Part shown: positions 42,760-54,036 of the stretch, piece after piece | Position numbering within the stretch: position 1 is the stretch's first letter | How the letters are laid out: every line of letters begins with the position of its first letter | Made by a program: the position numbers and the translations under genes | DNA from: a virus | Virus record (IMG/VR): IMGVR_UViG_3300045988_174665 | DNA: 64,000 nucleotides | Strand: one strand, 5' to 3' | Notes under the pieces: generated by a model | The model's input: only the letters and a program-made list of their open reading frames with translations | Databases searched by the model: none | Told to the model about the DNA's origin: nothing

Positions 42760-44412
42760 TTATAAATATTGTTTAATTAACTCAGAAAAGTTTCTTAAAA
42801 AATGAATCGAAATGGTGTCTTTTTGTAGGGCCGCTGTTCGCTGTATATCCCAAGCATTTTTAATGCCTGCCTGAGATTGCTGCGTTGGATAAAGTATTTC
42901 TGGAGTTGTAATAGTAACTCGAACCAATTTAGATAAATTTTTTTCTTTTGTATAATCTGTAATTGCCCGATAAATTAAATATAAGAAAAAGGACAAGGGA
43001 ATTAATATACCGTTCAAGTTCATAATGTGAATAGCATTTGTGGTTGTTTCTTTAAAATCTCCAATAGAAGAGGCATCGTCAAATAATAAATATGCCACAT
43101 CCTGAGCTAATAAACGGCTTAAATCTTCTTTATAATTTTCTTGATTACCAATTGCCCCTTTTCCTAATTGTAAAATTGCTCCAACCACATAAACAAAATT
43201 TTTATCTATATTAGAGAAAATTTCTTTAAAAGAATCCATTTTAATAGCTGTGCCGGCGGAGTAACCTCTCTTAGAAAAGTTTTCATTTAAGGTATATAAT
43301 TTAGAAGAACTATAAACAATAAAGCCATTATTAATTTTATCTAATCTCTGTCTTAAAATTTCAAATGCTCTATTATTATCCACATAATTACCTAAAGAGT
43401 TTTCTTTTGTAATTTTTTCTATAGCGTCTTTATCTATACCATAAGTATAAATATTATCCGCTTTAATCTTTTTCTCTCCAGAACCAATTCCTTCAATTTT
43501 GTATCCTTGATTTTTATTGTTTTGTAACATAAAGATGAAGTTTTCCAAAAATTCTTGTTCTAAACCGCCTTGACCAGCCGCTGTCTGCATAGCAACTTTG
43601 TTCTTTCTAGTGTTACCCAAAATCGCCTGTTTACAACTCATTAAGCTAACTCCTCTTTTACTTTTACTTTCTTTAATTCTCTTTTTAATTGAATTTTTAA
43701 TTTTATCAACTTGATACACTTGGCACATATTCCGCACGAAGGGGTTGGTGGCAGCCTTGCCTCTATATTTTTCTAAAGCTTCTACAACTTCGGCATAAGC
43801 GTTAGAATAATCTTTCCCAGTTTTATTTAATCCATTTTCTTGATTAGCACTGAATTGTAAAATTAAAGCTTCTTGTACAATTTCTGGCATTACCTCGTCA
43901 ATTACATTTTCAATTGCTGAATTAATTTTTACTCCTTTTTTAATTTGACTAATAATTTTTCGAGAAATTTTTCCCTCATATTTATCCCAAACCTTACCAA
44001 AATAAGTGCCAAAAAAGGCAGTAACTGTTTTTTGTCCCTTGGTATTCTTTATTAAGGCTACATTTCTTTCATAAACTTTTTTTAAGTTCATCGTTTCATT
44101 AAGAAGCTCAATTATTTTCTTTGCTCCATCTGCGGAGGCTGTCGAATCTTTTACTCCCCTTCCTACATTAATACCATAAACTTTTCTTAAAAGGGCTTTT
44201 TCTTTCTTTTCTTCATTTTGAGCTAGTCTTAATAATTGCTTGGCAGCGGTGACGTCTTCTGAACCCAGAGCATTTCTGAATTTACCACCGTCCCTCAAAT
44301 TTCTTTTAATTGTATCGTAAGTTTTTCTATAAGTCGGTCCACTGTCTTTTAATCTTTCGTAAAAAACATACATACTAGACAAAGAGCGACTTTGTATGTC
44401 TAAAGCTGGCAT
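42760..44412 (-). CDS. large hypothetical protein
   Basis: ORF track, 550 aa, GGAGG RBS; no motif recognised. Confidence 0.55.
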   Translation of the reverse strand: MPALDIQSRSLSSMYVFYERLKDSGPTYRKTYDTIKRNLRDGGKFRNALGSEDVTAAKQLLRLAQNEEKKEKALLRKVYGINVGRGVKDSTASADGAKKIIELLNETMNLKKVYERNVALIKNTKGQKTVTAFFGTYFGKVWDKYEGKISRKIISQIKKGVKINSAIENVIDEVMPEIVQEALILQFSANQENGLNKTGKDYSNAYAEVVEALEKYRGKAATNPFVRNMCQVYQVDKIKNSIKKRIKESKSKRGVSLMSCKQAILGNTRKNKVAMQTAAGQGGLEQEFLENFIFMLQNNKNQGYKIEGIGSGEKKIKADNIYTYGIDKDAIEKITKENSLGNYVDNNRAFEILRQRLDKINNGFIVYSSSKLYTLNENFSKRGYSAGTAIKMDSFKEIFSNIDKNFVYVVGAILQLGKGAIGNQENYKEDLSRLLAQDVAYLLFDDASSIGDFKETTTNAIHIMNLNGILIPLSFFLYLIYRAITDYTKEKNLSKLVRVTITTPEILYPTQQSQAGIKNAWDIQRTAALQKDTISIHFLRNFSELIKQYL

Positions 44413-44423
44413 AATTCCTCCTA

Positions 44424-44450
44424 TAAAAAAAGAGCGTTATTCACGCTCTT
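44424..44450 (-). terminator. intrinsic terminator
   Basis: AAGAGCG-loop-CGCTCTT hairpin followed by T7 in the minus sense. Confidence 0.6.
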
Positions 44451-44481
44451 ATGTATATAAAACAGCCTCTATTGAAGCCGA

Positions 44482-45243
44482 TTAGGACAATTGTACAACC
44501 TCGTCCAGTAATAAAGTCATATTGGAAGTTAATGGTTGGTTTGCGTGGAAATGCCCACAATACCAATGTGTGAAAGTAATTTTATCATAAACCTCTTCTA
44601 AAAATTCTTCCATAGAAGTATCCGCTTCTCCATAATTAAAAGGAAGAAATAATTCTGTGGGTTCATATTTAAGTGGACAAGTATGACTAAAAATATAATC
44701 ATATGAGTTATTTTTTGAAATAATTTCAAAAATTTCCTTTTTCTTCTCTTCATCCATTTGTTCATCGGGATACCAATATCCCCTTTTATGAACTACTCTC
44801 CAATATTTATCAATTGAATACGCCCCACCAAGTACAAGACACTTTTTCCCTAAAATTGTAATTACTCCATCATCAGGGAATAAAATATTAGAATACTTTT
44901 TTTCTACCCAACAATTACATTTTAAATCTCCTCTACATTGAATTTTTTGATAAGAAGGAATATGCTCGGGGCGGCAATCGTGATTACCTTGAATACAAAT
45001 TAAAGTAATTGGTAAATTACTAATTTTTTGCTTAATCTTTTCTCTATAAGACTTACTTTTATCTATAAGAGGCTCTCCCCATTTTAAACCAGTATTCATT
45101 TCATCATAAATATATCCATAATTGATTCCAGTATCACCCAAAAGAATTAAATAATCTTCTTTAGTGGTATTATTTTCCCTGCAAAATTGAGGTAAAAAGC
45201 CAAACTGACCGTGAGTATCCCCTCTTACAAAAATTCTTCCCAT
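44482..45243 (-). CDS. Ser/Thr-phosphatase-type metallophosphoesterase
   Basis: GDTHGQ, LGDTG, GNHD and GHFH motifs. Start moved to MGRIFVRGD because the ORF-track N-terminus overlaps tRNA-Gln. Confidence 0.8.
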   Translation of the reverse strand: MGRIFVRGDTHGQFGFLPQFCRENNTTKEDYLILLGDTGINYGYIYDEMNTGLKWGEPLIDKSKSYREKIKQKISNLPITLICIQGNHDCRPEHIPSYQKIQCRGDLKCNCWVEKKYSNILFPDDGVITILGKKCLVLGGAYSIDKYWRVVHKRGYWYPDEQMDEEKKKEIFEIISKNNSYDYIFSHTCPLKYEPTELFLPFNYGEADTSMEEFLEEVYDKITFTHWYCGHFHANQPLTSNMTLLLDEVVQLS

Positions 45244-45261
45244 TCCTTTCTCCTCTCTTAT

Positions 45262-45285
45262 ATACAAAAATCCCTTATAAAGGGA
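45262..45285 (-). terminator. terminator at the end of the tRNA island
   Basis: TCCCTT-TAT-AAGGGA hairpin followed by T5 in the minus sense. Confidence 0.5.
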
Positions 45286-45288
45286 ACT

Positions 45289-45363
45289 TGGCAGCGGAGA
45301 AGAGAATCGAACTCCTACCCGTTGGGTCAAAGCCAACTGTACTAACCGTTATACTACTCCGCT
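45289..45363 (-). tRNA. tRNA-Gln(TTG)
   Basis: Full cloverleaf, anticodon loop CTTTGAC, GGAGTTCGATTCTC T-arm, encoded CCA. Confidence 0.85.
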
Positions 45364-45999
45364 ATATTTAATTTAATAACTTATTTTAGCCATATAAAGA
45401 CCTTCGCCTTACTTTGATTTAGTTTTCTTCTATATTCAGCCACTAAGAAAACATACTTGAGCCTTGGGGAGCTACCCCAAAACGATATGCCCTATACCTC
45501 TTTAGAGGCAACTAAGCTTAGAAGGGAATGATTACCCTTAACTTTCACCCACCATCCAAAAAATATAATATCTTTTTAACATAAAAGGTATTTTCATCAT
45601 TGTTTTTCTATTTACGGTATTGAGCTACTCGCACATTAAACTTGCCTTATAGTTAAGTTACCTTAACATCACTACCACACCCCTTATTTGAGTTACTAAG
45701 GTTTGCTAATTTCTCAGGTTAGCCTAACTTAGCTTATTCTTTCACTGAAAGCGTCTATTACGGAGCGGACAAGAATTTGCCTTTAAAAGCAACTAATCAA
45801 GCACATCTTTCCCACCAAGAAGACCCGTCTTTTATCTCCGCCCTTATTAGGTCACCCTAATAAGTTCTCGTTGATTTAAAGTATCCTTAAAATCCTTACT
45901 AATTGGAATTATTGGAAAGATTCTCGGCACGATGGCATTCGTCTTCACCGAGGTTTATATGATTAAAATAAACTATTAAATTTTCAAGGTACAATTAAA
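45364..45999 (-). ncRNA. 636-nt ORF-free structured spacer (candidate large ncRNA)
   Basis: No ORF in either strand. Many local helices: TTGGGG/CCCCAA, CTTATTAG/CTAATAAG, AAGGG/CCCTT, CTCGG/CCGAG, GTTAAG/CTTAAC. Visibly richer in G+C than the flanking DNA. Confidence 0.35.
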
Positions 46000-46073
46000 T
46001 GGAGTGGATAAAGGGAATCGAACCCTCATCCTCGGTTTGGAAGACCAATGTTTTACCATTAAACTATATCCAC
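46000..46073 (-). tRNA. tRNA-Gly(TCC)
   Basis: Cloverleaf, anticodon loop CTTCCAA, U73, CCA. Confidence 0.85.
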
Positions 46074-46109
46074 ATTTATTACCTTAAATTTTATAAGGCA
46101 AAATAAATT

Positions 46110-46349
46110 TTAATCTTCTTTAATCTCTGGCTCAATAATAATAAAATCTCTTATCTTCATCCAGATATCATTTTCACTTTCTACCCACAGCTCATTAAAT
46201 TCAAGAGCGTGCAAAGCACCTAAAACAGATTTTGCATTAACACAAAAACCATTACTATCCTTTACCACGATTTTACCCTCAAGCTGTGAAGTAATATGAG
46301 CAAAATTAATTGCATCACTTGAAGTATCTAATCTAATCTTTGCTCTCAT
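46110..46349 (-). CDS. HPr-like domain protein lacking the catalytic His
   Basis: ...VNAKSVLGALHALEF... matches the HPr vnaKSimglmsLg core. The GLHARPA site is replaced by TSSDAINFA. Confidence 0.4.
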   Translation of the reverse strand: MRAKIRLDTSSDAINFAHITSQLEGKIVVKDSNGFCVNAKSVLGALHALEFNELWVESENDIWMKIRDFIIIEPEIKED

Positions 46350-46384
46350 TTTTTTTATCCTTCCTTTCTTAACTTTCTATAAAT

Positions 46385-46413
46385 ATTATATAGAAATTTT
46401 AAAAGATTTTCAA
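46385..46413 (-). promoter_or_regulatory. internal promoter
   Basis: Minus sense TTGAAA-17-TATAAT. Confidence 0.55.
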
Positions 46414-46417
46414 ATTT

Positions 46418-46494
46418 TGGTGCTCTTGAAAGGATTCGAACCTTCACTTGATAGAGCCTAAATCTATTGCCTCTTCCAATTGGGCTACAAGAGC
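46418..46494 (-). tRNA. tRNA with anticodon TAG (Leu codon CUA) but a short variable loop
   Basis: GCTCTTG/CAAGAGC acceptor, stem ATAGA/TCTAT, loop TTTAGGC, 5-nt variable loop CAAGT, A73, CCA. Confidence 0.7.
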
Positions 46495-46615
46495 ATATAA
46501 AGCTTTTAATTAAGCGAATACATTTTTCAGTATTACTTTAAATGCGGAGGCTATCAAATCTCACTTCCCTCACATACTTAATTTGGCGATTTGACCTAAC
46601 CATAAGCTTTTTTAA

Positions 46616-46689
46616 TGGAGATACTATTTGGAATTGAACCAAAAATCAAGCTTTTGCAGAGCCTTGCCTTACCATTTGGCTATAGTATC
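46616..46689 (-). tRNA. tRNA-Cys(GCA)
   Basis: Anticodon loop CTGCAAA, U73, CCA. Confidence 0.85.
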
Positions 46690-46692
46690 ATA

Positions 46693-46768
46693 TGGAGCTT
46701 CTAGTCAGATTCGAACTGACGGTCTTTGGATTACTAAACCAATGCTTTACCAACTAAGCTACAGAAGC
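46693..46768 (-). tRNA. tRNA with anticodon AGT (Thr-like) and a U31-U39 mismatch
   Basis: 76 nt in standard register; loop TTAGTAA gives A34-G35-U36. Confidence 0.6.
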
Positions 46769-46953
46769 ATAATCTTATTGTCTAGACTTTGACCACACTT
46801 AATGTTTGGATAAGATACTCAAACTTGGGTTTACCTATATCGTCGCTCCCTCAAACCACGGAGTATTTTTCGATTATACTCAACGCCTTCTTTCATCGCC
46901 CAAATATGGCAGGTATTTATTCCATTATTATAATTTTAAAATTATAATATAAT

Positions 46954-47037
46954 TGGTAGGAGAGGATGGATTCGAACCATCGAAGCGAAACGCAACAGAT
47001 TTACAGTCTGCCCCTTTTACCACTCAGGAACTCTCCT
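46954..47037 (-). tRNA. tRNA-Tyr(GTA)
   Basis: Loop CTGTAAA, long variable arm GCG-TTT-CGC, A73, CCA. Confidence 0.85.
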
Positions 47038-47113
47038 TGGTGTGCCATCGGAGATTCGAACTCCGGACTTCTTGATTAAAAGTCAAGTATTCTACCAACT
47101 GAATTAATGGCAC
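47038..47113 (-). tRNA. tRNA-Lys(TTT)
   Basis: Loop CTTTTAA, perfect cloverleaf, abuts tRNA-Tyr. Confidence 0.9.
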
Positions 47114-47252
47114 AAATTTAATAAGAATGACACTCTTTGCTTGTATATTCGCAATGACCATCTCATTCTTATCTTTAAATTACTTAAAACCAGAGGGTGA
47201 CAATCCTCATTTCCATAAAGGCGATAGATGCCCGTTCTATCCTTGGTTTTAA

Positions 47253-47329
47253 TGGTGCTCTTAGATAGGATTGAACTATCAACCTCTCACTTATAAGGTG
47301 AGTGCTCTAACCAACTGAGCTATAAGAGC
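47253..47329 (-). tRNA. tRNA-Ile(TAT)
   Basis: Stem CTCAC/GTGAG, loop CTTATAA, A73, CCA. Confidence 0.8.
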
Positions 47330-47637
47330 ATTTAAACTAAATAAGACGCATCTTATTTAGTTAGGCTTTATCCGCAGAATCAGCCGCAATTCATCATTTT
47401 AGTCTTACAAACCCACTTACTAAGACTTGCTTTGATTTCGTTCAAAGGTTTTTCTAAAGCGGTTACGCCAATTTTTTAAAATTGGAAAAACTAATTAAAT
47501 TAATTAGACAGAGAATCTTCTCTTTTTTAAGAATAGATATAATACTGGTAATTTACATCCGCTTTTAGTTATTTCTTCTTTTAAAGAAATCCCTTCAATT
47601 ACAGTCCTATTGCGGCAAGGGCTAACAGTATTTTTAG

Positions 47638-47705
47638 GGGAAGCAACGAGGCTTGAACTCGTACCAATCCTAGGAATTATTCTAACCAATTGAAACTATA
47701 CTTCC
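47638..47705 (-). ncRNA. 68-nt tRNA-like RNA with a 13-nt mini anticodon arm
   Basis: Acceptor GGAAGTA/TGCTTCC, D-arm with AATTGGTTA loop, T-arm ACGAG-TTCAAGC-CTCGT. Only AATTC-CTA-GGATT sits where the anticodon arm should be. No encoded CCA. Confidence 0.5.
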
Positions 47706-47734
47706 CTTAACAGTCAACTTAATCATTGACTTAA

Positions 47735-47810
47735 TGGCTCTTACAGCAGGACTCGAACCTGCAACTCTCTGATTAACAGTCAGATGCTCTACCGATTGAA
47801 CTATGTAAGA
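47735..47810 (-). tRNA. tRNA-Asn(GTT)
   Basis: Loop CTGTTAA, U1-A72, G73, CCA. Confidence 0.9.
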
Positions 47811-48192
47811 ATATTTAAAGGTGCAGGGATAGCCTAACCCCACATCGAGCAGGAAAACACCAAGAATTTTTCTGCTCATTGTTTAAGCATCCCGACCAGT
47901 TTCTCGGTAACTGCGGCCAAGGCTTCCTTTTCGTTATATCCCGTTAGTAGAAACCATCAATTTTTCTTCTAAGGCAGATAACTCCAGTACTGCACTAACT
48001 TCTGGATATACGTTCAAGCAAGTATCACTTACCAAGTTTAACGACATTGACAAGTCGGCTAGATTAGATATAGAATTTTAATCTATACCCTACATATGGG
48101 AAGGACAATGACCTGGCTGTTTTTACTCTATAGGTTTCAGCCTAACTATTAGAGTAAGGAATCTCATCTTTCTGAGGCGTCACATTGTCCTC
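47811..48192 (-). ncRNA. 382-nt ORF-free structured spacer (candidate ncRNA)
   Basis: Long nested helices in the minus sense, e.g. GGACAATG..AC / GT..CATTGTCC, TTACTCTA.TAG / CTATAGAGTAA, TATAGA/TCTATA. Confidence 0.35.
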
Positions 48193-48273
48193 TGGAGCAG
48201 ATGAAGAGAATCGAACTCCTGCTATCAGTTTCAGTTCGGAGAACTGATGTACTAACCACTATACTACATCTGC
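48193..48273 (-). tRNA. aberrant tRNA (loop TCTCCGA, C33; 10-nt variable region)
   Basis: Good acceptor, D- and T-arms (body paralogous to tRNA-Gln). Anticodon stem TCAGT/ACTGA, with the ACTGA strand duplicated. Confidence 0.55.
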
Positions 48274-48285
48274 ATATAAGATAAT

Positions 48286-48361
48286 TGGCTGTTCATTGGA
48301 GATTCGAACTCCAGACCACCGTGTACACCAGTAGCTCTTCCTAACTGAGACTTAATGAACA
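48286..48361 (-). tRNA. aberrant tRNA-like gene without a regular anticodon arm
   Basis: TGTTCAT/ATGAACA acceptor, G73, CCA, T-arm TGGAG-TTCGAAT-CTCCA. The central ACTGGTGTACACGGTGG gives only a weak TACTG/CGGTG stem with loop GTGTACA. Confidence 0.5.
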
Positions 48362-48729
48362 ATATATTATAAATACTAGATTCAGATAAGCAAGACTTTA
48401 CAAATCTCTAGAATATCCGTGAAATAATCGTTATGTCTGCAGAACATATAATTATTTCATCCTACTTATCTGGTAAGCTTTCTTGGGCGAGATGAACTTA
48501 CTAACTCTACCTTAGAATAAAAATAGCATCTAACATCATTTTATCCCTCTATAGAGATTTACTTAAATTTTAGTTATACAAGCAGCCCGTGTTTACCGTT
48601 ACACTAACAACCGCATATATTGCCTTGCTTGTGATATAAGCTCTGCAAAGCATAGAGTTTGTATCGTACCACTCAATCCCTTATTTATTCGCTTTATTTT
48701 AGGTATCTAATAATTGCGATTAGATTTAC

Positions 48730-48820
48730 TGGCGGCGAGGGTGAGATTCGAACTCACACACCTCTTTCCAGCTACTAACAGTTTAGCAAACTGCTTCCTT
48801 ACCATTAGGATTACCTCGCC
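48730..48820 (-). tRNA. tRNA-Ser(GCT)
   Basis: Loop TTGCTAA, long variable arm, G73, CCA. Confidence 0.9.
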
Positions 48821-48822
48821 AT

Positions 48823-48950
48823 ATGGCTAGAGTGGTTGGACTCGAACCAACTTATATTCGGAAATTTAAAGTTCTTATAATATAGATTAAAAGTCTATTC
48901 CTAATGGGTAGAAGGATGAACCTCAACAGCCGAATATTTATTTAACTTAC
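48823..48950 (-). ncRNA. signature hairpin RNA unit A (followed by an orphan T-arm and ..GCCA tail)
   Basis: P1 ATATTCGG/CCGAATAT, GGCU, UUCAUCCUUCUA, then GTTGG-TTCGAGT-CCAAC-CACTCTAGCCA. Own promoter upstream. Confidence 0.5.
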
Positions 48951-48957
48951 ATTAAAT

Positions 48958-48986
48958 ATTATAGCATATATTTTATTATTTGTCAA
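48958..48986 (-). promoter_or_regulatory. internal promoter for unit A
   Basis: Minus sense TTGACA-17-TATAAT with an extended TGC. Confidence 0.6.
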
Positions 48987-49014
48987 ATATTTTTTATTAT
49001 TTAAAATTTGTTCG

Positions 49015-49148
49015 ATGCGGTAATTTTAACATCTACATAATACTATTGCACTACCAACTGTGCTACATCCCGCTTTAATGGGATGGTGGGAATCGAACCC
49101 ACATCACATAGTCCCCTGATATAGAAGGATGATGTTAGTCAGCCGCAT
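49015..49148 (-). ncRNA. signature hairpin RNA unit B carrying a permuted tRNA-like domain (YrlA-like architecture)
   Basis: P1 ATGCGG/CCGCAT and P2 TAACATC/GATGTTA, with GGCU and AUCAUCCUUCUA. The inner module at 49042-49112 has a T-arm, a capped 6-bp acceptor helix, U8-A9 and a D-arm with GG, closed by ACTAT/ATAGT. Confidence 0.6.
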
Positions 49149-49197
49149 ATTTTTTATATTGTGGAAATTTGTTTCTCTAAAATCTTAATCCCAAATC

Positions 49198-49240
49198 AAG
49201 TGCTTGTTAGCGTAGAAGGATGAAAAACAATAGCCACTTT
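49198..49240 (-). ncRNA. signature hairpin RNA unit C
   Basis: AAGTG/CACTT and UGUU/AACA helices; loop UUUCAUCCUUCUACGCU. Confidence 0.45.
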
Positions 49241-49250
49241 GAGAAAGAGA

Positions 49251-49313
49251 TGTGGGAATTTAATGCTCTTTTAAAACCGTTTATTATATAGAAGGATGAG
49301 CATTACAGCCACA
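49251..49313 (-). ncRNA. signature hairpin RNA unit D
   Basis: P1 TGTGG/CCACA, P2 TAATGCTC/GAGCATTA; the loop starts AUCCUUCUA. Confidence 0.5.
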
Positions 49314-49324
49314 AATTATAAATA

Positions 49325-49418
49325 GTGGAAATCGGACTTTCTATCTTATTATTATGGAGGTGGCTAAACCACCGAAATTCTTTTTTTTTCTTAGAAGGAA
49401 GAAAGTCCATAGCCACAA
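49325..49418 (-). ncRNA. signature hairpin RNA unit E
   Basis: P1 GTGG/CCAC, P2 GGACTTTCT/AGAAAGTCC, variant UUCCUUCUA, inner hairpin GGTGG-TTTAG-CCACC. Confidence 0.5.
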
Positions 49419-49440
49419 TAACTTCATTTTATTTCACAAA

Positions 49441-51720
49441 TTATAACAAAGCAAATAGTTCATCGGTATCAAAAGCTGTGACAATCGGAACTTCTGGCTT
49501 TTCCTTTATAACGGGTTTTGTGGTACCCGTAACCTCGTCAAACTCTTTTGCAATTTCATAAGGTACTGTTGTATCATTACTAAAAATGATATCCGCTTCA
49601 TTTCTATTTGTAACAATACTACCTCTTGCAATAGCGTTCATCATTACAAGGTCATAAATATTTGCCTTATTAAGATGTGTTAAACCATAGCAGGTTGCAG
49701 TTACACCCTGTAAATTACTTTCAAGATTATTGCCATAAAACCTCGGACTTCCATTCTGAAGGTTCATATCACACCAGATGAACTTACGCTCAACACAATC
49801 AAATATAACAGGTATAGCAACAGTACTATCAGCAGTTAAGTCAATCTTCATTTCAACTGTTTTCGGCTCGAATATCTCACCGCTATTTACATCTTCTCTT
49901 TCCATCCATCCGAAACGGCAATTGGGAAGCGTAGAAAAATGCTGTCGTGTAAAACTATAAACCTGAAATGCAATGTATCTACCAGCGTTTTTAGCAACTG
50001 CATCAATGTCCACATCAATAAACTCTGCTACACCATCACCGTTAATATTTCCGCCATTGGTAATGTCACCCGAATGATATGCTCTATATTTTGCAGAGCG
50101 AAGTTGTGTATATGATACACGGTCAACATACTGCCAATTTTCGTCATAAATGGTTGCAGAAAGGTCAATATCAACCCTGTCTTCACCCCAACCATTTCTC
50201 GCCTTATCGGTATTAGTCCACCAGATAAAACCACGAACAGCTGTAGCGTCTTTCTTAATGGGCAACTTACTACCACGAACAATGGTCTTAACAGCCTTAC
50301 TTGCACTTCTCTGACTAAACGGAACAAGATAATTTTTGAAATCCTCATCAATATAAACTTTTCCGAGGAAATCTTTTTCCTTATACTGTTCAATTAAAGC
50401 ATCACGGCAAATCGTTGCAATATTGTTACATACATTGCTATTGATTTTAGGAAGTTCATTTTTGATAACCATAGCTTTTGCAAGATTTCCCTTAGGAAAG
50501 AATACTCTTACAGGCTGATTATCATTCTCCATTCTTCCTATAAAATGCTGTCTTACCTGAAGAAGTACAGGAGTTGAAATTTTTGTTGCAACTTCTTTAA
50601 AACAGTTGACAATATAATTCGGATTATCTGCATCACGAATAAGTTTATCAAGTTGTCTTGCAAACTCTCCCGGTCTTGCCTTTAACAAGGTAGCGGCTTC
50701 ACGCATATCTTTTGCGGTAATTGCTGCCTGAACCTTTCCCGCAAACATAAGAGGCTTTTTCTCATTTCTTAAAGTATTAAATGCAGCGTTAACATTATGA
50801 TACTTTGCTTTTTTATATTCAAACGGATGAAGAATTTCTGCTACTCTAATCCATTCATACTGATAACGGAACAAATCCTCTGTTATATTACTACAACCAG
50901 CAAGCAAATCCATAATCATACGGCGTTCAACCCTACGAAGGTTTCTGTATTTAGTCCTTGAAGCAAGACTAATGTCGCCATTAGAAAGTGCTGTTACAAG
51001 TCGTAAAACATCTGTTGTAGTCTTGAAATATTTACTTATTGAATCAGCACTTTTGATTGGTGCTTTTTCAATAATAAGCTTTCCAATAAATGCAACATTC
51101 TCTTTAAGAGGAATTGTATTAGGAAGATATGTAGTATAATCGGGACAAGCAAGAATAATAGCTTCAATGTCCTCTTTATCCTGCTCCGAAATTGATGTCT
51201 TACTCTCAACAAGATTTGTGAAAATAGTCATCAAATCATCGTGACTTCCCATTGACAAAACAGTCATTTTATTGTCATCAATAAGTGGGAAACGCTCATC
51301 TTTTTCGTATTCGGGAATTAATGTACCAAATGACCAGTAATGAACGATTGCATTAACAAACAACTCGATATCACTTGCTTCTGCAACCTGCTGCGGGAAG
51401 TTCGGATACATTGGATTATATGTAACATCCGCACCAACAAGTTCTTTAAGTGCAGGAATAAGGGAACTATAAAAAGCAATAAAATTATCTCTTGTAAGAT
51501 GGAATACTTTTTCAAGAAGTTCCCTTGAAAATGTAAAGCCAAGAGCCTGAATATTTTTCAAGCCAGAAATAACAAGTGCCTTTTCTGCCTTATCCTGCTC
51601 ATAAGTCATATCGGCACTGCCAAAGTTAATCGTTACGAAATTGGCGGCAGGTTCAAACATTACCAAATGCTTACGGCGTAACAAAATCTTATCAAGTTCT
51701 GTTAATTTGAAATTCTTCAT
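49441..51720 (-). CDS. 759-aa protein: helical N-terminal domain (possible distant TROVE/Ro60-like) plus C-terminal TerD-like domain
   Basis: The C-terminus reads ...DIDLSATIYDENW..VSY......YRAYHSGDITNGG..GDGVAEFIDVDIDAV....RYIAFQVYSF, matching the TerD pattern (DLD...hSGDn.tG.gdgDdE.i.vdL). N-terminal strings INFGSADMTY, TKYRNLRRVERRMIMDLL...ILHP and FARQLDKLIR are colinear with TROVE landmarks as I recall them. Confidence 0.6.
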   Translation of the reverse strand: MKNFKLTELDKILLRRKHLVMFEPAANFVTINFGSADMTYEQDKAEKALVISGLKNIQALGFTFSRELLEKVFHLTRDNFIAFYSSLIPALKELVGADVTYNPMYPNFPQQVAEASDIELFVNAIVHYWSFGTLIPEYEKDERFPLIDDNKMTVLSMGSHDDLMTIFTNLVESKTSISEQDKEDIEAIILACPDYTTYLPNTIPLKENVAFIGKLIIEKAPIKSADSISKYFKTTTDVLRLVTALSNGDISLASRTKYRNLRRVERRMIMDLLAGCSNITEDLFRYQYEWIRVAEILHPFEYKKAKYHNVNAAFNTLRNEKKPLMFAGKVQAAITAKDMREAATLLKARPGEFARQLDKLIRDADNPNYIVNCFKEVATKISTPVLLQVRQHFIGRMENDNQPVRVFFPKGNLAKAMVIKNELPKINSNVCNNIATICRDALIEQYKEKDFLGKVYIDEDFKNYLVPFSQRSASKAVKTIVRGSKLPIKKDATAVRGFIWWTNTDKARNGWGEDRVDIDLSATIYDENWQYVDRVSYTQLRSAKYRAYHSGDITNGGNINGDGVAEFIDVDIDAVAKNAGRYIAFQVYSFTRQHFSTLPNCRFGWMEREDVNSGEIFEPKTVEMKIDLTADSTVAIPVIFDCVERKFIWCDMNLQNGSPRFYGNNLESNLQGVTATCYGLTHLNKANIYDLVMMNAIARGSIVTNRNEADIIFSNDTTVPYEIAKEFDEVTGTTKPVIKEKPEVPIVTAFDTDELFALL

Positions 51721-51748
51721 TATAATTAATCTCCTTTATTTTAATTTG

Positions 51749-51820
51749 TCGGTAATAATTGAAACTATTTTTAAGACTTAAATTTTCTTTTTATAGAAGG
51801 AAGTTTCAATATAGCCGTTA
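51749..51820 (-). ncRNA. signature hairpin RNA unit F (in the 5' leader of the 759-aa ORF)
   Basis: GGCU, P2 ATTGAAACT/AGTTTCAAT, variant CUUCCUUCUA. Ends about 12 nt before the ORF's RBS. Confidence 0.45.
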
Positions 51821-51897
51821 GGAAAAATTGATGGGAATTTTACACTCTATTCTTATAGCAAAAAGTTTTAGAAGGATGAATATTTTCAGCCACCAAC
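51821..51897 (-). ncRNA. signature hairpin RNA unit G
   Basis: TTGGTGG/CCATCAA pairing, GGCU, UUCAUCCUUCUA. Confidence 0.45.
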
Positions 51898-51940
51898 TTG
51901 AATGAAGGTTGAGTTATTGTCATTATACCTACAATATGAC

Positions 51941-52017
51941 TGGTAACACCGCCGAGGCTCGAACTCGGAATATTCGCCGTGAAAGAGCGATGTGTTAGCC
52001 AATTCCACTACGGTGTC
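51941..52017 (-). tRNA. tRNA-Glu(TTC)
   Basis: Loop CTTTCAC, G1-U72 wobble, A73, CCA. Confidence 0.8.
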
Positions 52018-52020
52018 ATA

Positions 52021-52096
52021 TGGAGCTGGTGGACGGACTTGAACCCTCAACCTACTGATTACAAATCAGTTACTCTACCAATTGAGCTACACCAGC
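52021..52096 (-). tRNA. tRNA-Thr(TGT)
   Basis: Loop TTTGTAA, U73, CCA; one T-stem mismatch. Confidence 0.85.
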
Positions 52097-52308
52097 ATAT
52101 ATGTTATCTGGATTACCCTAGTTCCTAACTTTTTAAACCCTCACGAGTTTAAACAAATGCACGATAACAATACATTTAGAGATTCTTAATAATAACGCAG
52201 CTCTCTCCCTCACTACGAATAGTTTTTCGTTAGCTATTAACGCATAGCTTATCGTTCGCTACGGACGCCTTCTTTTTCTTGGGTAAAGCGGGCAGGAATA
52301 TTTCCCGA

Positions 52309-52383
52309 TGGGTGCGGAGAAGGGATTCGAACCCTTAACCTTCAGAATATGAGTCTGCTGAGCTACCGTTGCTCCACTCCGCA
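52309..52383 (-). tRNA. tRNA with anticodon CAT (elongator Met or Ile2-type)
   Basis: Loop CTCATAT. The anticodon stem GCAGA/TCTGA lacks the three G-C pairs typical of an initiator. Confidence 0.8.
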
Positions 52384-52604
52384 ATATCTTCCCTCATCCA
52401 GTTCCTAGGTAGAGGGAATTTTCATAAAAAAATACGGTTTCTTTGCCTTTAAGACATAGTTGTAAATAGGTTTACCGAAAACCCCTCAGCACCTCCACAT
52501 CAACTCATACAACGAAGAAGAATGCTTCAACGATGGCGTTACAAGGATAAAATACTTGCCTTGTATATCTTCCCTTATCTAATTCTTAGATAGAAGGGAA
52601 AGCG

Positions 52605-52675
52605 TTTTTTAGAAGATAAACTTCTCGGACGCAATATTCGCCCTGTTTTTTTAGAAGATAAACTTCTCGGACGCA
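52605..52675. repeat. direct repeat, 2 x ~29 nt
   Basis: TTTTTTAGAAGATAAACTTCTCGGACGCA at 52605 and 52646; each contains an AGAAG-ATAAA-CTTCT hairpin. Confidence 0.7.
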
Positions 52676-52717
52676 CACTCGCCGCTTTTGCTAAAACTTA
52701 AACCTAAGAAGATATAA

Positions 52718-52840
52718 TTAGGTTTTATTCAAAAGACGAATTCGTCTTTCAAGTTTCTTAATGATACGAGCATTTGCTACCGCATCTCGTGACTTGAGTT
52801 TATGAATACGATTTGAATAATAAAGTTTAGTTCTTGTCAT
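52718..52840 (-). CDS. 40-aa basic peptide candidate
   Basis: MTRTKLYYSNRIHKLKSRDAVANARIIKKLERRIRLLNKT with a GAAAGGAAG RBS; below the ORF-track cut-off. Confidence 0.35.
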   Translation of the reverse strand: MTRTKLYYSNRIHKLKSRDAVANARIIKKLERRIRLLNKT

Positions 52841-52863
52841 AAAATCTTCCTTTCATTTTAAAT

Positions 52864-52938
52864 TGGTACAAGAGAAGAGATTCGAACTCTTAGCTACAAA
52901 GTCCCAAACTTTGCCGTCTACCATTGACTTACTCCTGT
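52864..52938 (-). tRNA. tRNA-Pro(TGG)
   Basis: Loop TTTGGGA, A73, CCA. Confidence 0.85.
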
Positions 52939-53014
52939 ATATGTGAGGATTGCTTTCGTTATTTTATTCAGCGTTCACATAAAGATTACCCTCTAATCCA
53001 AAACTTAACGCTTC

Positions 53015-53090
53015 TGGTGGGACAAGAGGGATTCGAACCCTCACTAAATGGATTTTAAGTCCATTGCCTCTGCCGTTGGGCTACTGTCCC
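53015..53090 (-). tRNA. tRNA with anticodon TAA (Leu codon UUA) but a short variable loop
   Basis: GGGACAG/TTGTCCC acceptor, stem ATGGA/TCCAT, loop CTTAAAA, 5-nt variable loop TTAGT, A73, CCA. The D-arm GCCC..GAGGC is shared with 46418..46494. Confidence 0.7.
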
Positions 53091-53480
53091 ATGGCACAAC
53101 TTATTTATGTAAAGATGGAGTTGCCAACCACCGTTAAATAATCAACAAAAGAAATTTCCTCACCTTTATTTTACTAAACGCTTTTTATTGTTTTACGCCC
53201 TTATTTGTTCAGAGTAGCTAACCTCCTACTTTATTCAGAAGCTCATCGAAATCTTAACTAAGTATACCTCATCAAGAAACTGTTTAACCACCATCTTTTT
53301 CTTCAAAAAGATTTAAAAGCATTTAAACTTTTGTCGATTCATTGCCCTCTCAATTCTACCAACTAGTATAGTATCCTCAGGCTTGGGACTGAGCATCGGC
53401 TGATTACAATAAAGCCTTAGAGAGGGAAGTCTTTTGAAAAGAGGTTTTTAGGGAAATTAAAGAAAGGATTGCTTCCCTCT
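53091..53480 (-). ncRNA. ~390-nt structured leader between the island promoter and the first tRNA
   Basis: Starts with an 11-bp helix AGAGAGGGAAG/CTTCCCTCTCT; no ORF. Confidence 0.35.
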
Positions 53481-53488
53481 CTATAAAT

Positions 53489-53517
53489 ATTATATCATAT
53501 TTTTAATTAAAAGTCAA
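53489..53517 (-). promoter_or_regulatory. promoter of the tRNA/ncRNA island
   Basis: Minus sense TTGACT-17-TATAAT. Confidence 0.65.
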
Positions 53518-53534
53518 AATTTTTATTTCTAAAT

Positions 53535-53651: not shown

Positions 53652-53685
53652 TTTTTTATTCTCCTTTCTTAACTTTTCTATAAAT

Positions 53686-53714
53686 ATTATAACAAATATT
53701 TATTTTAAAATCAA
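53686..53714 (-). promoter_or_regulatory. promoter (first of three tandem copies)
   Basis: Minus sense TTGATT-17-TATAAT. Confidence 0.6.
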
Positions 53715-53769
53715 ATTTTTTGTTCTTAACTTTCTCTTAAAAAGTTTTTTTCTTAACTTTTCTATAAAT

Positions 53770-53798
53770 ATTATAGAAAAAATTTAAAAGAAAATCAA
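53770..53798 (-). promoter_or_regulatory. promoter (second tandem copy, no ORF of its own)
   Basis: Minus sense TTGATT-17-TATAAT; part of an ~85-bp direct repeat. Confidence 0.5.
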
Positions 53799-53856
53799 AA
53801 TTTTTAGGAGAAACTTTCTAAAAAAATTTTTTTTCTTTCTTAATTTTTCTATAAAT

Positions 53857-53885
53857 ATTATAGAAAAAATTTAAAAGAAAATCAA
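53857..53885 (-). promoter_or_regulatory. promoter (third tandem copy, no ORF of its own)
   Basis: Minus sense TTGATT-17-TATAAT; near-identical to the second copy. Confidence 0.5.
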
Positions 53886-53889
53886 AAAC

Positions 53890-54036
53890 TTATTCGTAAT
53901 TTTCATAACTATTTTTATGTTTATGTTTACGAGTATATTTAGTTTTATCTGGAATCACTCTGGTAATTGGTTTTACACCATTCCAAGAACCTCTTAGTCC
54001 ATAAGTATATTTAAGCACTTCACTTTTCCTCTTCAT
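53890..54036 (-). CDS. 48-aa basic peptide candidate
   Basis: MKRKSEVLKYTYGLRGSWNGVKPITRVIPDKTKYTRKHKHKNSYENYE; TAATG overlap with the upstream gene. Confidence 0.4.
   Translation of the reverse strand: MKRKSEVLKYTYGLRGSWNGVKPITRVIPDKTKYTRKHKHKNSYENYE

Follow-up and report, generated by a model that had tools for sequence, protein, structure and literature searches.

In a transfer RNA (tRNA) island of a human-gut phage, seven copies of an RNA unit of ~65–135 nt flank the open reading frame (ORF) of a 759-aa TerD-family protein, two lying upstream and five downstream of it. The unit is a conserved, covarying RNA fold, and its association with the TerD-family gene, on the same strand, is near-obligate in the phage and bacterial genomes that we compared. 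The island is contained in a 64,000-nt stretch of viral DNA (IMG/VR record IMGVR_UViG_3300045988_174665), hereafter the window, to which all positions refer unless another locus is named; all of its features are on the minus strand. Taken as a whole, the data are best explained, we think with somewhat better than even probability, by a multi-promoter island bearing noncoding RNAs (ncRNAs), in which the unit would be a Y-RNA-like RNA partner of the TerD-family protein and the inserts that it carries would serve as display modules. More tentative, and rather doubtful in our own estimate, is the proposal that the unit represents a new and widespread class of protein-partnered small RNA (sRNA), the CUUCCUUCUA scaffold of which, resembling the 3' end of 16S ribosomal RNA (rRNA), gut phages would have adapted as a modular bait platform against tRNA-targeting defences or tRNA-processing enzymes.

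The units share one order of elements: helix P1 (6 bp, ..NNNNGG), CUR, helix P2 (7–9 bp), C(U/A)UCCUUCU(A/U), an insert, ..AG, the P2' strand, AUU(U/A/C) and the P1' strand (CCNNNN). The elements GGCUR, C(U/A)UCCUUCUA and AUUNCC are invariant and, since P1 pairs both termini, the ends of the unit RNA are paired, as they are in Y RNAs. The exact decamer CATCCTTCTA occurs five times in the window, each time on the minus strand and between 48909 and 51878; of its four one-mismatch matches two are further unit cores within the same interval and two lie elsewhere, which brings the total to seven cores. A covariance model built from bacterial units only (R1) recovers six units in the window at E values of 3e-11 to 1e-7, with the next best match in the 64 kb at an E value no better than 0.07 (Table 1). 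Three other interpretations of the conserved elements were tried and rejected. A hairpin between neighbouring units (CCRC...GYGG) is out, as the 3' element finds its pairing partner in the 5' element upstream within the same unit; a genome-wide phage promoter is out, as all seven cores are beside the ORF, with only the two one-mismatch matches found elsewhere; and a third helix, between the core CUA and the conserved UAG, shows no covariation, the position being paired in 2–41% of units.

Pairing in P1 was tested on phage units, of which the 41 (among 46) that pair well in P2 were used. The variable P1 positions are paired in 93% and 85% of these units, compared with 68% and 46% for shuffled partners, and none of 2,000 shuffles rises above 80% and 66%. 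The 3' strand of P1 pairs with its own 5' strand (0.93) and less well with that of the next unit (0.61). Among bacteria, 43 non-redundant minimal units from the best 80 of 276 loci align unambiguously, and in these 96.2% of cells are paired versus 63.6% after shuffling, a value reached by none of 500 shuffles. The covariation score amounts to 0.883, versus 0.213 when shuffled and at most 0.14 with a slid partner, and 11 of 14 pairs show changes on both sides. Across the units G.U pairs outnumber A.C pairs by 136 to 24, an excess which argues that the sense strand is the folding strand and that RNA is made from it. Neither in the window nor in nine representative loci does the unit match a family of Rfam 15. 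The class is apparently undescribed, being absent from Rfam 15 and from the open literature searched, and automated microbiome RNA-motif catalogues could hold it unnamed.

The stretch GCGGCUG...C(U/A)UCCUUCUA of all units (for example window 49222–49213) resembles the 3' end of Firmicute 16S rRNA, which we take to be GCGGCUGGAUCACCUCCUUUCUA, and the unit CCUUCU is complementary to AGAAGG/AGGAGG ribosome-binding sites, including the AAAGGAAGGA sites of this phage. The 16S-like core may be a coincidence or may be a functional anti-Shine-Dalgarno mimic.

The 759-aa ORF with its noncoding flanks is the only part of the island common to ten related IMG/VR loci (51–91% protein identity), and the arrangement of units around the ORF is found in all ten, including two that are without any tRNAs. 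Scanning of genomes by protein alignment gave 276 loci encoding the protein, and in the best 80 of these a strict pattern search combined with the covariance model places the unit next to the gene and on the same strand in ~79. In 25 loci the model gave 58 hits, every one of them on the strand of the ORF. In the reverse direction, each of the 13 IMG/VR stretches with at least two motif matches encodes the protein. The hosts comprise Ruminococcus, Lachnospiraceae, Coprococcus, Paenibacillus, Brevibacillus, Bacillus, Niallia, Heyndrickxia, Priestia, Neobacillus and Tepidibacter, to which single assemblies each add Bacteroidota, Acidobacteriota, Chloroflexota and Gammaproteobacteria.

Bacillales units have a −10 box 4–8 nt upstream of P1 and a U-run directly after P1', and may lie on either side of the gene or at a distance of 1.9 kb; judged by these signals, the Bacillales unit has the look of a separate sRNA, ~70 nt long and paired at its termini. 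The distant position is that of a second, stand-alone unit in Brevibacillus (L084, L086–L089, L093 and L094, at ~540–700), which stands ~1.9 kb upstream, after a glutamate-synthase-like ORF and facing convergent peroxiredoxin genes, and is equipped with a −10 box and a U-run of its own. Well-paired single units also occupy second sites at L101, L133, L140 and L146, on the contigs that hold L006, L123, L002 and L001, with the protein encoded elsewhere on the contig; these second-site copies imply that the unit RNA can be dispersed in a genome. A conserved bacterial operon around the gene was looked for in Bacillales and rejected, the neighbours being unrelated housekeeping genes.

The insert is modular and includes tRNA mimicry. 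Bacillales inserts are 15–25 nt long. Among 146 inserts of Clostridia and phages, 27 form a perfect stem of 5 bp that carries a 7-nt loop of the type Y-U-NNN-R-N, where 1.7 would be expected. Those that are not T loops are anticodon-arm mimics, with the Lys loop CUUUUAA in seven, a Pro loop in three, and Tyr, Asp, Asn, Cys, Ser, Thr and Ile loops in one each; looser mimics with a 4-bp stem, picked out by eye, include one with a His loop. The loop of unit 5 is that of the phage's own tRNA-Pro and the loop of unit 7 that of its own tRNA-Lys. The fold of fourteen long inserts (unit 6 and 13 homologues) comprises a T arm, a closed acceptor hairpin of 7 bp and a D arm; of its 27 pairs 20 are compensatory, and by eye the equivalent of the anticodon stem covaries as well and runs into P2. 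This architecture is that of the tRNA-like domain of YrlA, which explains the weak matches to the YrlA family (RF02553): these score 37 bits in the window (model positions 23–85), 44.3 in L021 and 29.6 in L052, all below the threshold of 69. In L001 (9800–9870) an extra permuted tRNA-like unit, lost from the window, lies between two upstream units. In all tRNA-bearing relatives (L001, L003, L005, L006 and L010) tRNA-Lys(UUU) ends 4–45 nt before the first unit; tRNA-Thr and tRNA-Glu hold this site in the window, and Lys is the commonest of the anticodon-loop mimics.

Homologues of the 759-aa protein are named 'TerD family protein' in their sources. The beta-sandwich of its AlphaFold2 model matches TerD of S. 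coelicolor (3ibz) with a Foldseek E value of 6e-5 and a target TM of 0.61, and the sequence matches phrog_33734 and, over residues 510–603, phrog_5698. The NCBIfam model NF041916 (MXAN_6230/SCO0854 RING-domain family) gives E = 6e-122 at 408.4 bits, below its cut-off of 600, and covers residues 325–708 only (profile 388–762 of 842); with this partial, sub-cut-off match the protein belongs to a related but distinct family. A Ro60/TROVE identity of the N-terminal domain was considered and is unsupported by Pfam, by sequence and profile searches of the PDB and by the listed Foldseek matches, whether the whole model or the isolated domain was searched. Literature searches on SCO0854/MXAN_6230 and on TerD together with RNA motifs returned nothing relevant.

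In the mechanism that we propose from these patterns, the unit would be the RNA partner of the TerD-family protein, which would bind the invariant internal loop and junction, and the insert would be an exchangeable display module. In soil Bacillales the module would be a short loop (15–25 nt). In gut Clostridia and phages its place would be taken either by mimics of anticodon stem-loops, for the most part of Lys UUU but also of Pro, Tyr, Asp and others, or by an entire tRNA-like domain devoid of an anticodon loop. Such tRNA look-alikes in phages would most plausibly bait or tether tRNA-recognising enzymes, be these anticodon nucleases or repair or processing factors, and baiting of this kind would complement the tRNAs that the phage itself encodes as well as the phosphoesterase and RNA-ligase genes adjacent to them.

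The island as a whole is mosaic and multi-promoter, and holds 16 tRNA genes and at least four kinds of structured ncRNA. It belongs to a phage of roughly 110–136 kb with tail, XkdX and endolysin genes on the contig. From the promoter at 53517 to the terminator at 45285–45271 it measures 8,229 nt, and both of these signals, predicted by an initial annotation made from the sequence alone, were recovered by our scans. Of this length 1,240 nt are tRNA, 2,643 nt are ORFs (759, 79 and 40 aa) and 4,346 nt, or 53%, are neither, in agreement with the annotation's statement that more than half is spacer. Its figure of 18 tRNA or tRNA-like genes corresponds to the 16 called genes, which lie at 45289–53090 and include Lys, Tyr, Asn, Glu and Gln (ARAGORN and Rfam agree), plus two uncalled tRNA-like sequences, and the long inter-tRNA gaps are present with the coordinates and lengths that it gave. 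Its description of these gaps holds in part. They contain no large ORFs, although short TTG/GTG/ATG ORFs of at most 65 aa are present, without convincing ribosome-binding sites. Compared with the window mean of 0.31, G+C content is raised in E (0.40), C (0.38), A (0.35) and ROOL (0.34), whereas the values of D, F, G, H and J do not depart from the genome average. As for the long local helices, minimum free energy (MFE) z-scores against dinucleotide shuffles, for which coding controls give −1.5 to +1.1, are −4.8 for skipping-rope, −3.8 for B and J, −3.4 for ROOL, −3.1 for F, −2.8 for D and −2.2 for E, whereas A (+0.5), C (−0.6) and G (−0.6) show no excess folding.

The view that the island is a single transcription unit did not survive. 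A stereotyped cassette of ~57–69 nt (TTGAnn-17-TATAATATTTATAGAAA) is present in six copies (46364–46420, 48937–48993, 53468–53524, 53665–53721, 53749–53805 and 53836–53892). Three of these are in tandem at ~85-bp spacing in a stretch of 14–20% G+C just upstream of the island and the other three are within it. The cassette looks like a phage-specific class of strong promoter, possibly of early promoters. With copies recurring at 48993–48937 and 46420–46364 the island is not one transcription unit, and these internal promoters weaken the idea that its RNAs are released from a single tRNA precursor.

The suggestion that several spacers are stable ncRNAs, perhaps of the ROOL or GOLLD type, proved right for some of them. 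In the Rfam covariance search of the island that the annotation had called for, ROOL and skipping-rope score above threshold. The 636-nt gap between tRNA-Gly and tRNA-Gln (45364–45999) is filled by a full-length ROOL, the one gap for which the ROOL/GOLLD guess was correct. It sits behind its own promoter cassette together with the 79-aa ORF and two tRNAs, and the block is missing from a 99.97%-identical contig (L013) that replaces everything downstream of 46355. Skipping-rope and a drum-like element are in gaps that had not been listed. Skipping-rope is described as being followed by a Rho-independent terminator (PMC5737381); between 47185 and tRNA-Lys on the minus strand our terminator scan found none, and by eye there is a long-loop hairpin followed by AUUAAAUUU. 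The drum-like element, in which the conserved CGUUGAA/GGAG/GGGUU/AACC blocks are matched, is probably a drum RNA, and is bracketed by a 33-nt hairpin repeat (52384–52416 and 52565–52597, 82% identical). ROOL, skipping-rope and drum were all described by Weinberg et al. 2017 (PMC5737381), ROOL in the context of tRNAs and prophages, and drum and skipping-rope in association with particular nearby protein genes, on either side, with sophisticated functions thought likely. ROOL forms RNA-only homo-oligomeric complexes (PMC12286853). The noncoding flanks of the 759-aa ORF hold the seven covarying units. As structured RNAs, then, ROOL, skipping-rope, probably drum and the seven units bear the suggestion out, and six of the seven listed gaps do not.

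These six gaps (A, C, D, E, F and G) are absent from all ten related phage loci. Searches of GenBank phages, near and distant, with the noncoding parts returned tRNA matches only, and pseudo-protein pattern scans of IMG/VR found no relative of A or F and one near-identical contig (95%) for E. Nor do these gaps give evidence of a conserved structured RNA in other respects: A, C and G fold like shuffles, and D encloses the 5' half of a tRNA-His (48612–48587). In a sister phage (L011) with a 98% identical large protein, a compact His-Asn-Ser array replaces D, the pseudo-tRNA, tRNA-Gly and E. Gap C is the block most divergent from the sister phage (8% substitutions, 18 indel columns) and is probably unconstrained; since divergence between the window and this 95–98% identical phage is patchy, 0–8% per block, which points to mosaic recombination, the sister comparison is uninformative on constraint. 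A match to twister-P1 (RF03160) in gap A (53341–53410, minus strand; 25.7 bits against a threshold of 67.2, E = 0.05) is probably noise. On this evidence the remaining ~2.6 kb of spacer reads as lineage-specific filler with tRNA debris and no sign of function, an argument from absence, and the outcome that the initial annotation had named as contrary to its proposal, poor conservation with decayed tRNA genes, is closer to what we see in these gaps.

Table 1. Positions of the units, genes, spacers and signals of the island, with the evidence for each
Feature	Position	Strand	Evidence and remarks
Unit 1	51829–51895	−	R1 31.8 bits, E = 1.2e-7
Unit 2	51747–51820	−	R1 39.4 bits, E = 4.3e-10; in 5' untranslated region (UTR) of the ORF, closes ~27 nt before start codon
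759-aa TerD-family protein	49441–51720	−	Alpha-helical-repeat N-terminal part (predicted), TerD beta-sandwich, small C-terminal domain
Unit 3, GC-hairpin insert	49323–49417	−	R1 40.2 bits, E = 2.4e-10
Unit 4	49250–49314	−	R1 34.2 bits, E = 2e-8
Unit 5, insert an anticodon stem-loop mimic, loop UUUGGGA (Pro UGG)	49159–49239	−	R1 43.0 bits, E = 2.8e-11; hairpin scan
Unit 6, permuted tRNA-like insert (variable loop, T arm, closed acceptor hairpin, D arm)	49015–49148	−	Motif and pairing; YrlA 37 bits at 49044–49110
Unit 7, insert an anticodon stem-loop mimic, loop CUUUUAA (Lys UUU)	48856–48935	−	R1 33.7 bits, E = 2.9e-8; hairpin scan
ROOL RNA, full length	45379–45976	−	RF03087, 301.6 bits (threshold 99.1), E = 2.4e-68, model 1–574/574
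Skipping-rope RNA	47185–47251	−	RF02924, 44.3 bits (threshold 36.7), model 1–80/80
Drum-like RNA	52430–52535	−	RF02958, 33.3 bits, below threshold 43; E = 1.4e-4 (480-nt search); model 1–112/112
Gap A, 390-nt leader	53091–53480	−	z +0.5; no IMG/VR relatives
Gap C, 212 nt	52097–52308	−	z −0.6
Gap D	48363–48729	−	z −2.8; tRNA-His 5' half inside; absent from L011
Gap E, 382 nt, lineage-specific	47811–48192	−	z −2.2; one IMG/VR copy at 95%; absent from L011
Gap F, 307 nt	47330–47636	−	z −3.1; no IMG/VR relatives
Gap G, 185 nt	46769–46953	−	z −0.6; PDDEXK_5 ORF in its place in L011
tRNA-like sequence with acceptor stem, T arm, CCA and GUA loop on 6-bp stem	48285–48362	−	Uncalled by ARAGORN/Rfam; looks degenerate
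Pseudo-tRNA, acceptor stem and T arm intact, D and anticodon arms degenerate	47637–47706	−	Uncalled by ARAGORN/Rfam
tRNA-Gln 3' remnant, recombination scar	48822–48851	−	Matches tRNA-Gln 3' end of related phages; end of region J
Mini-ORF, 40 aa, highly basic, MTRTKLYYSNRIHKLKSRDAVANARIIKKLERRIRLLNKT	52718–52840	−	Between tRNA-Pro and drum-like RNA
79-aa ORF	46110–46349	−	Gene call in L011 and L014
Head promoter, TTGACT-17-TATAAT with TG	53489–53517	−	Promoter scan; one of six cassette copies
Internal promoter cassette, perfect TTGACA-17-TATAAT, TG	48937–48993	−	Would drive unit 7 and downstream tRNAs; kept in related phages
Third island promoter cassette	46364–46420	−	Upstream of 79-aa ORF, tRNA-Gly, ROOL, tRNA-Gln
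Intrinsic terminator	45271–45285	−	3' of tRNA-Gln; terminator scan

Searching all spacers with blastn against the 171 tRNA genes of the fetched loci returned only the His and Gln fragments. The acceptor pairing of the pseudo-tRNA at 47637–47706 is decayed further in L011. The tRNA-Gly(UCC) at 48193–48273 (minus strand), which is absent from the sister phage, is 81 nt long with an extended variable region, and by reading its anticodon loop has C instead of U at position 33. A transfer-messenger RNA (tmRNA) gene lies within the same tRNA island in L010 (7463–7862; same contig as L021) and in Ruminococcus sp. YE282. The 40-aa mini-ORF has a strong ribosome-binding site, AAAGGAAG, upstream and is annotated as a gene in L015; in the sister phage, which is 8% divergent over this block, no corresponding gene is called. 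It has no Pfam or PHROG match, and the 79-aa ORF none in Pfam, PHROG or NCBIfam. Two copies of a perfect direct repeat of 29 nt lie 42 nt apart (52605–52633 and 52647–52675), each forming on the transcribed strand a small hairpin followed by an A-run. Directly downstream of the island, at ~42760–45250 (minus strand) and beyond, genes for a Metallophos phosphoesterase and a 550-aa protein are accompanied by two small ORFs and by an RNA-ligase gene (PF09414 and PF21189). The block, which corresponds to 16478–20720 of L014, looks like an RNA-repair cassette; L013 is without both this cassette and ROOL.

Several points weigh against the unit as an RNA partner of the TerD-family protein and against the island as we read it. 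The evidence for protein–RNA binding is co-occurrence, and the 759-aa protein has no Pfam match, with no known RNA-binding domain detected in it; its N-terminal ~450 residues are predicted to form alpha-helical repeats, with generic alpha-solenoid similarity only. R1 missed unit 6 on account of its 89-nt insert. The P2 statistics (88% of cells paired versus 60% with P2 segments swapped among units) are somewhat inflated, the 3' halves of the units having been located by best complementarity, a selection from which P1 is free. As the minimal bacterial unit is free of tRNA mimics, mimicry cannot be what the basic function depends on, and the evidence for decoys is loop identity. The filler verdict on gaps A, C, D, E, F and G is a call from absence, and IMG/VR and GenBank phages may simply lack relatives. 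In many Bacillales, lastly, a U-run comes after units placed in the 5' leader, which also fits a cis-acting attenuator. The main rival, which we hold to be unlikely, builds on this arrangement and sees in the unit a cis-regulatory leader of the TerD-family gene, be it a protein-binding attenuator, a riboswitch or an anti-Shine-Dalgarno element. One or two units are located directly upstream of the ORF in most Bacillales loci, in L085 and L076 P1 and then a terminator-like U-run come before the ORF, window unit 2 is in the 5' UTR, and the invariant, single-stranded CCUUCU complements AGAAGG/AGGAGG within a core resembling the Firmicute 16S 3' end. A riboswitch or leader would, however, be expected at a consistent place in the 5' UTR, and the units are found upstream, downstream, on both sides or 1.9 kb away. 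Niallia, Heyndrickxia and many Lachnospiraceae have them only after the ORF; the stand-alone Brevibacillus copy has its own −10 box and U-run beside unrelated genes; and phages have up to 6–8 copies, mostly after the stop codon, with extra copies far from the gene on related phage contigs. Variable tRNA-like inserts, moreover, are unexpected in a leader.

Tandem units directly before a protein gene, in some Bacillales separated from it by a terminator-like U-run, strict same-strand association and expanded arrays in phages would also suit a type III toxin–antitoxin-like pair, in which RNA repeats sequester a harmful protein and the phage copy acts as antidote or anti-defence. We regard this as very unlikely: the protein, of 700–760 aa with helical and TerD parts, matches TerD and no other family in Pfam or among solved structures, so that no nuclease domain was detected, the units often follow the gene, and those of one array differ throughout P1, P2 and insert, in place of near-identical repeats cut at a fixed site. 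Action of the repeats as DNA, whether as iterons, recombination sites of tRNA cassettes or operators, is barely credible to us. They are direct repeats with 65–135-bp spacing on both sides of one gene in a visibly recombining region, but two helices covary by Watson-Crick/G.U logic (with the G.U excess given above), the motif is always on the strand of the gene, promoter and U-run signals frame single Bacillales units, and the helix sequences are unconserved, although a protein-binding DNA site would need conservation. Finely balanced, in our judgement, is a reading that concerns the spacers as a group, namely that all long ones except ROOL are non-functional, composed of decayed tRNA genes, recombination scars and promoter cassettes that build up through the frequent recombination of tRNA islands, and owe their structured look to tRNA-derived helices. 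The tRNA-His half in D, the tRNA-Gln remnant ending J and the two pseudo-tRNAs speak for it, as do the shuffle-like folding of A, C and G, the lack of homologues of A, E and F beyond the lineage, and the turnover between close relatives, a 98%-related phage being without D and E and having an ORF for G, and L013, the contig nearest to the window, replacing the whole ROOL end. It leaves unaccounted for the skipping-rope and drum-like matches and the seven units with their strong covariation and cross-phylum association with one gene, and B, D, E and F still have z-scores of −2.2 to −3.8.

By uniting ROOL, skipping-rope and a drum-like RNA with a fourth class that is not on record, the island supports the notion that tRNA islands collect structured RNAs. 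Annotators should nonetheless be cautious: ~60% of the noncoding length is without signs of conservation, and long spacers alone are not evidence of ncRNA. The TerD-family protein becomes approachable through its putative RNA partner, which in minimal form is ~65–70 nt long and is present in culturable Paenibacillus, Brevibacillus and Bacillus, and the phage mimics on the unit scaffold offer a possible link to the conflict between anticodon nucleases and phages over tRNAs. If our reading is true, the idea embodied in Y RNA and YrlA, a tRNA-like module on a protein-binding stem, would extend to a second, unrelated protein. On the more doubtful reading as a bait platform, the phages would possess an RNA-based anti-defence or tRNA-surveillance system for which there is no described counterpart.

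Among known systems YrlA and the Y RNAs (RF02553; PMC4201824) come closest. Like them, the unit is a small RNA in which the paired ends form a stem with conserved unpaired nucleotides, it is encoded beside one particular protein gene on the same strand, and there are several paralogous RNAs per locus; in some units there is even a tRNA-like domain, its parts arranged as variable loop, T arm, closed acceptor-like hairpin and D arm. YrlA is characterised by its tRNA-like domain, by a GNCGAAN0-1G Ro60-binding motif near the 5' end and by a Ro60/TROVE gene within ~4 kb on the same strand (PMC4201824). By contrast, the 5' parts of the units read NNNNGG-CUR-P2-C(U/A)UCCUUCUA and GNCGAA is present in no unit, the conserved elements being GGCUR, CUUCCUUCUA and AUUNCC instead; the partner gene is of the TerD family, with no detectable TROVE; and most units have no tRNA-like domain, others bearing anticodon-arm mimics that are not described for YrlA in PMC4201824. 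Lacking the Ro60 motif and a TROVE partner, and scoring below the Rfam threshold, the unit is not a member of the YrlA family. With the RNA repeats of type III toxin–antitoxin systems (ToxI) it shares tandem structured units by one protein gene, sometimes a terminator between them, and occurrence in phages; it differs in that the units are divergent, fold independently and vary in position relative to the gene, and in that the protein has no detected nuclease domain. The ROOL of the window conforms to its family (PMC5737381) in being placed between tRNA genes in a phage. The new unit resembles skipping-rope and drum in travelling with one protein family, and differs from both in structure and in protein partner. 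Phage tRNAs, finally, counter anticodon nucleases (PMC10264068, PMC11555353), and an island that gives 16 tRNAs and is followed by phosphoesterase and RNA-ligase genes bears a likeness to such counter-defence, fitting a theme of tRNA protection or repair. Where it departs from tRNA-based counter-defence is in its non-tRNA RNAs, a display of tRNA parts for which we found no description in the literature searched: isolated anticodon stem-loops and a tRNA body without an anticodon, presented on a separate, conserved scaffold.

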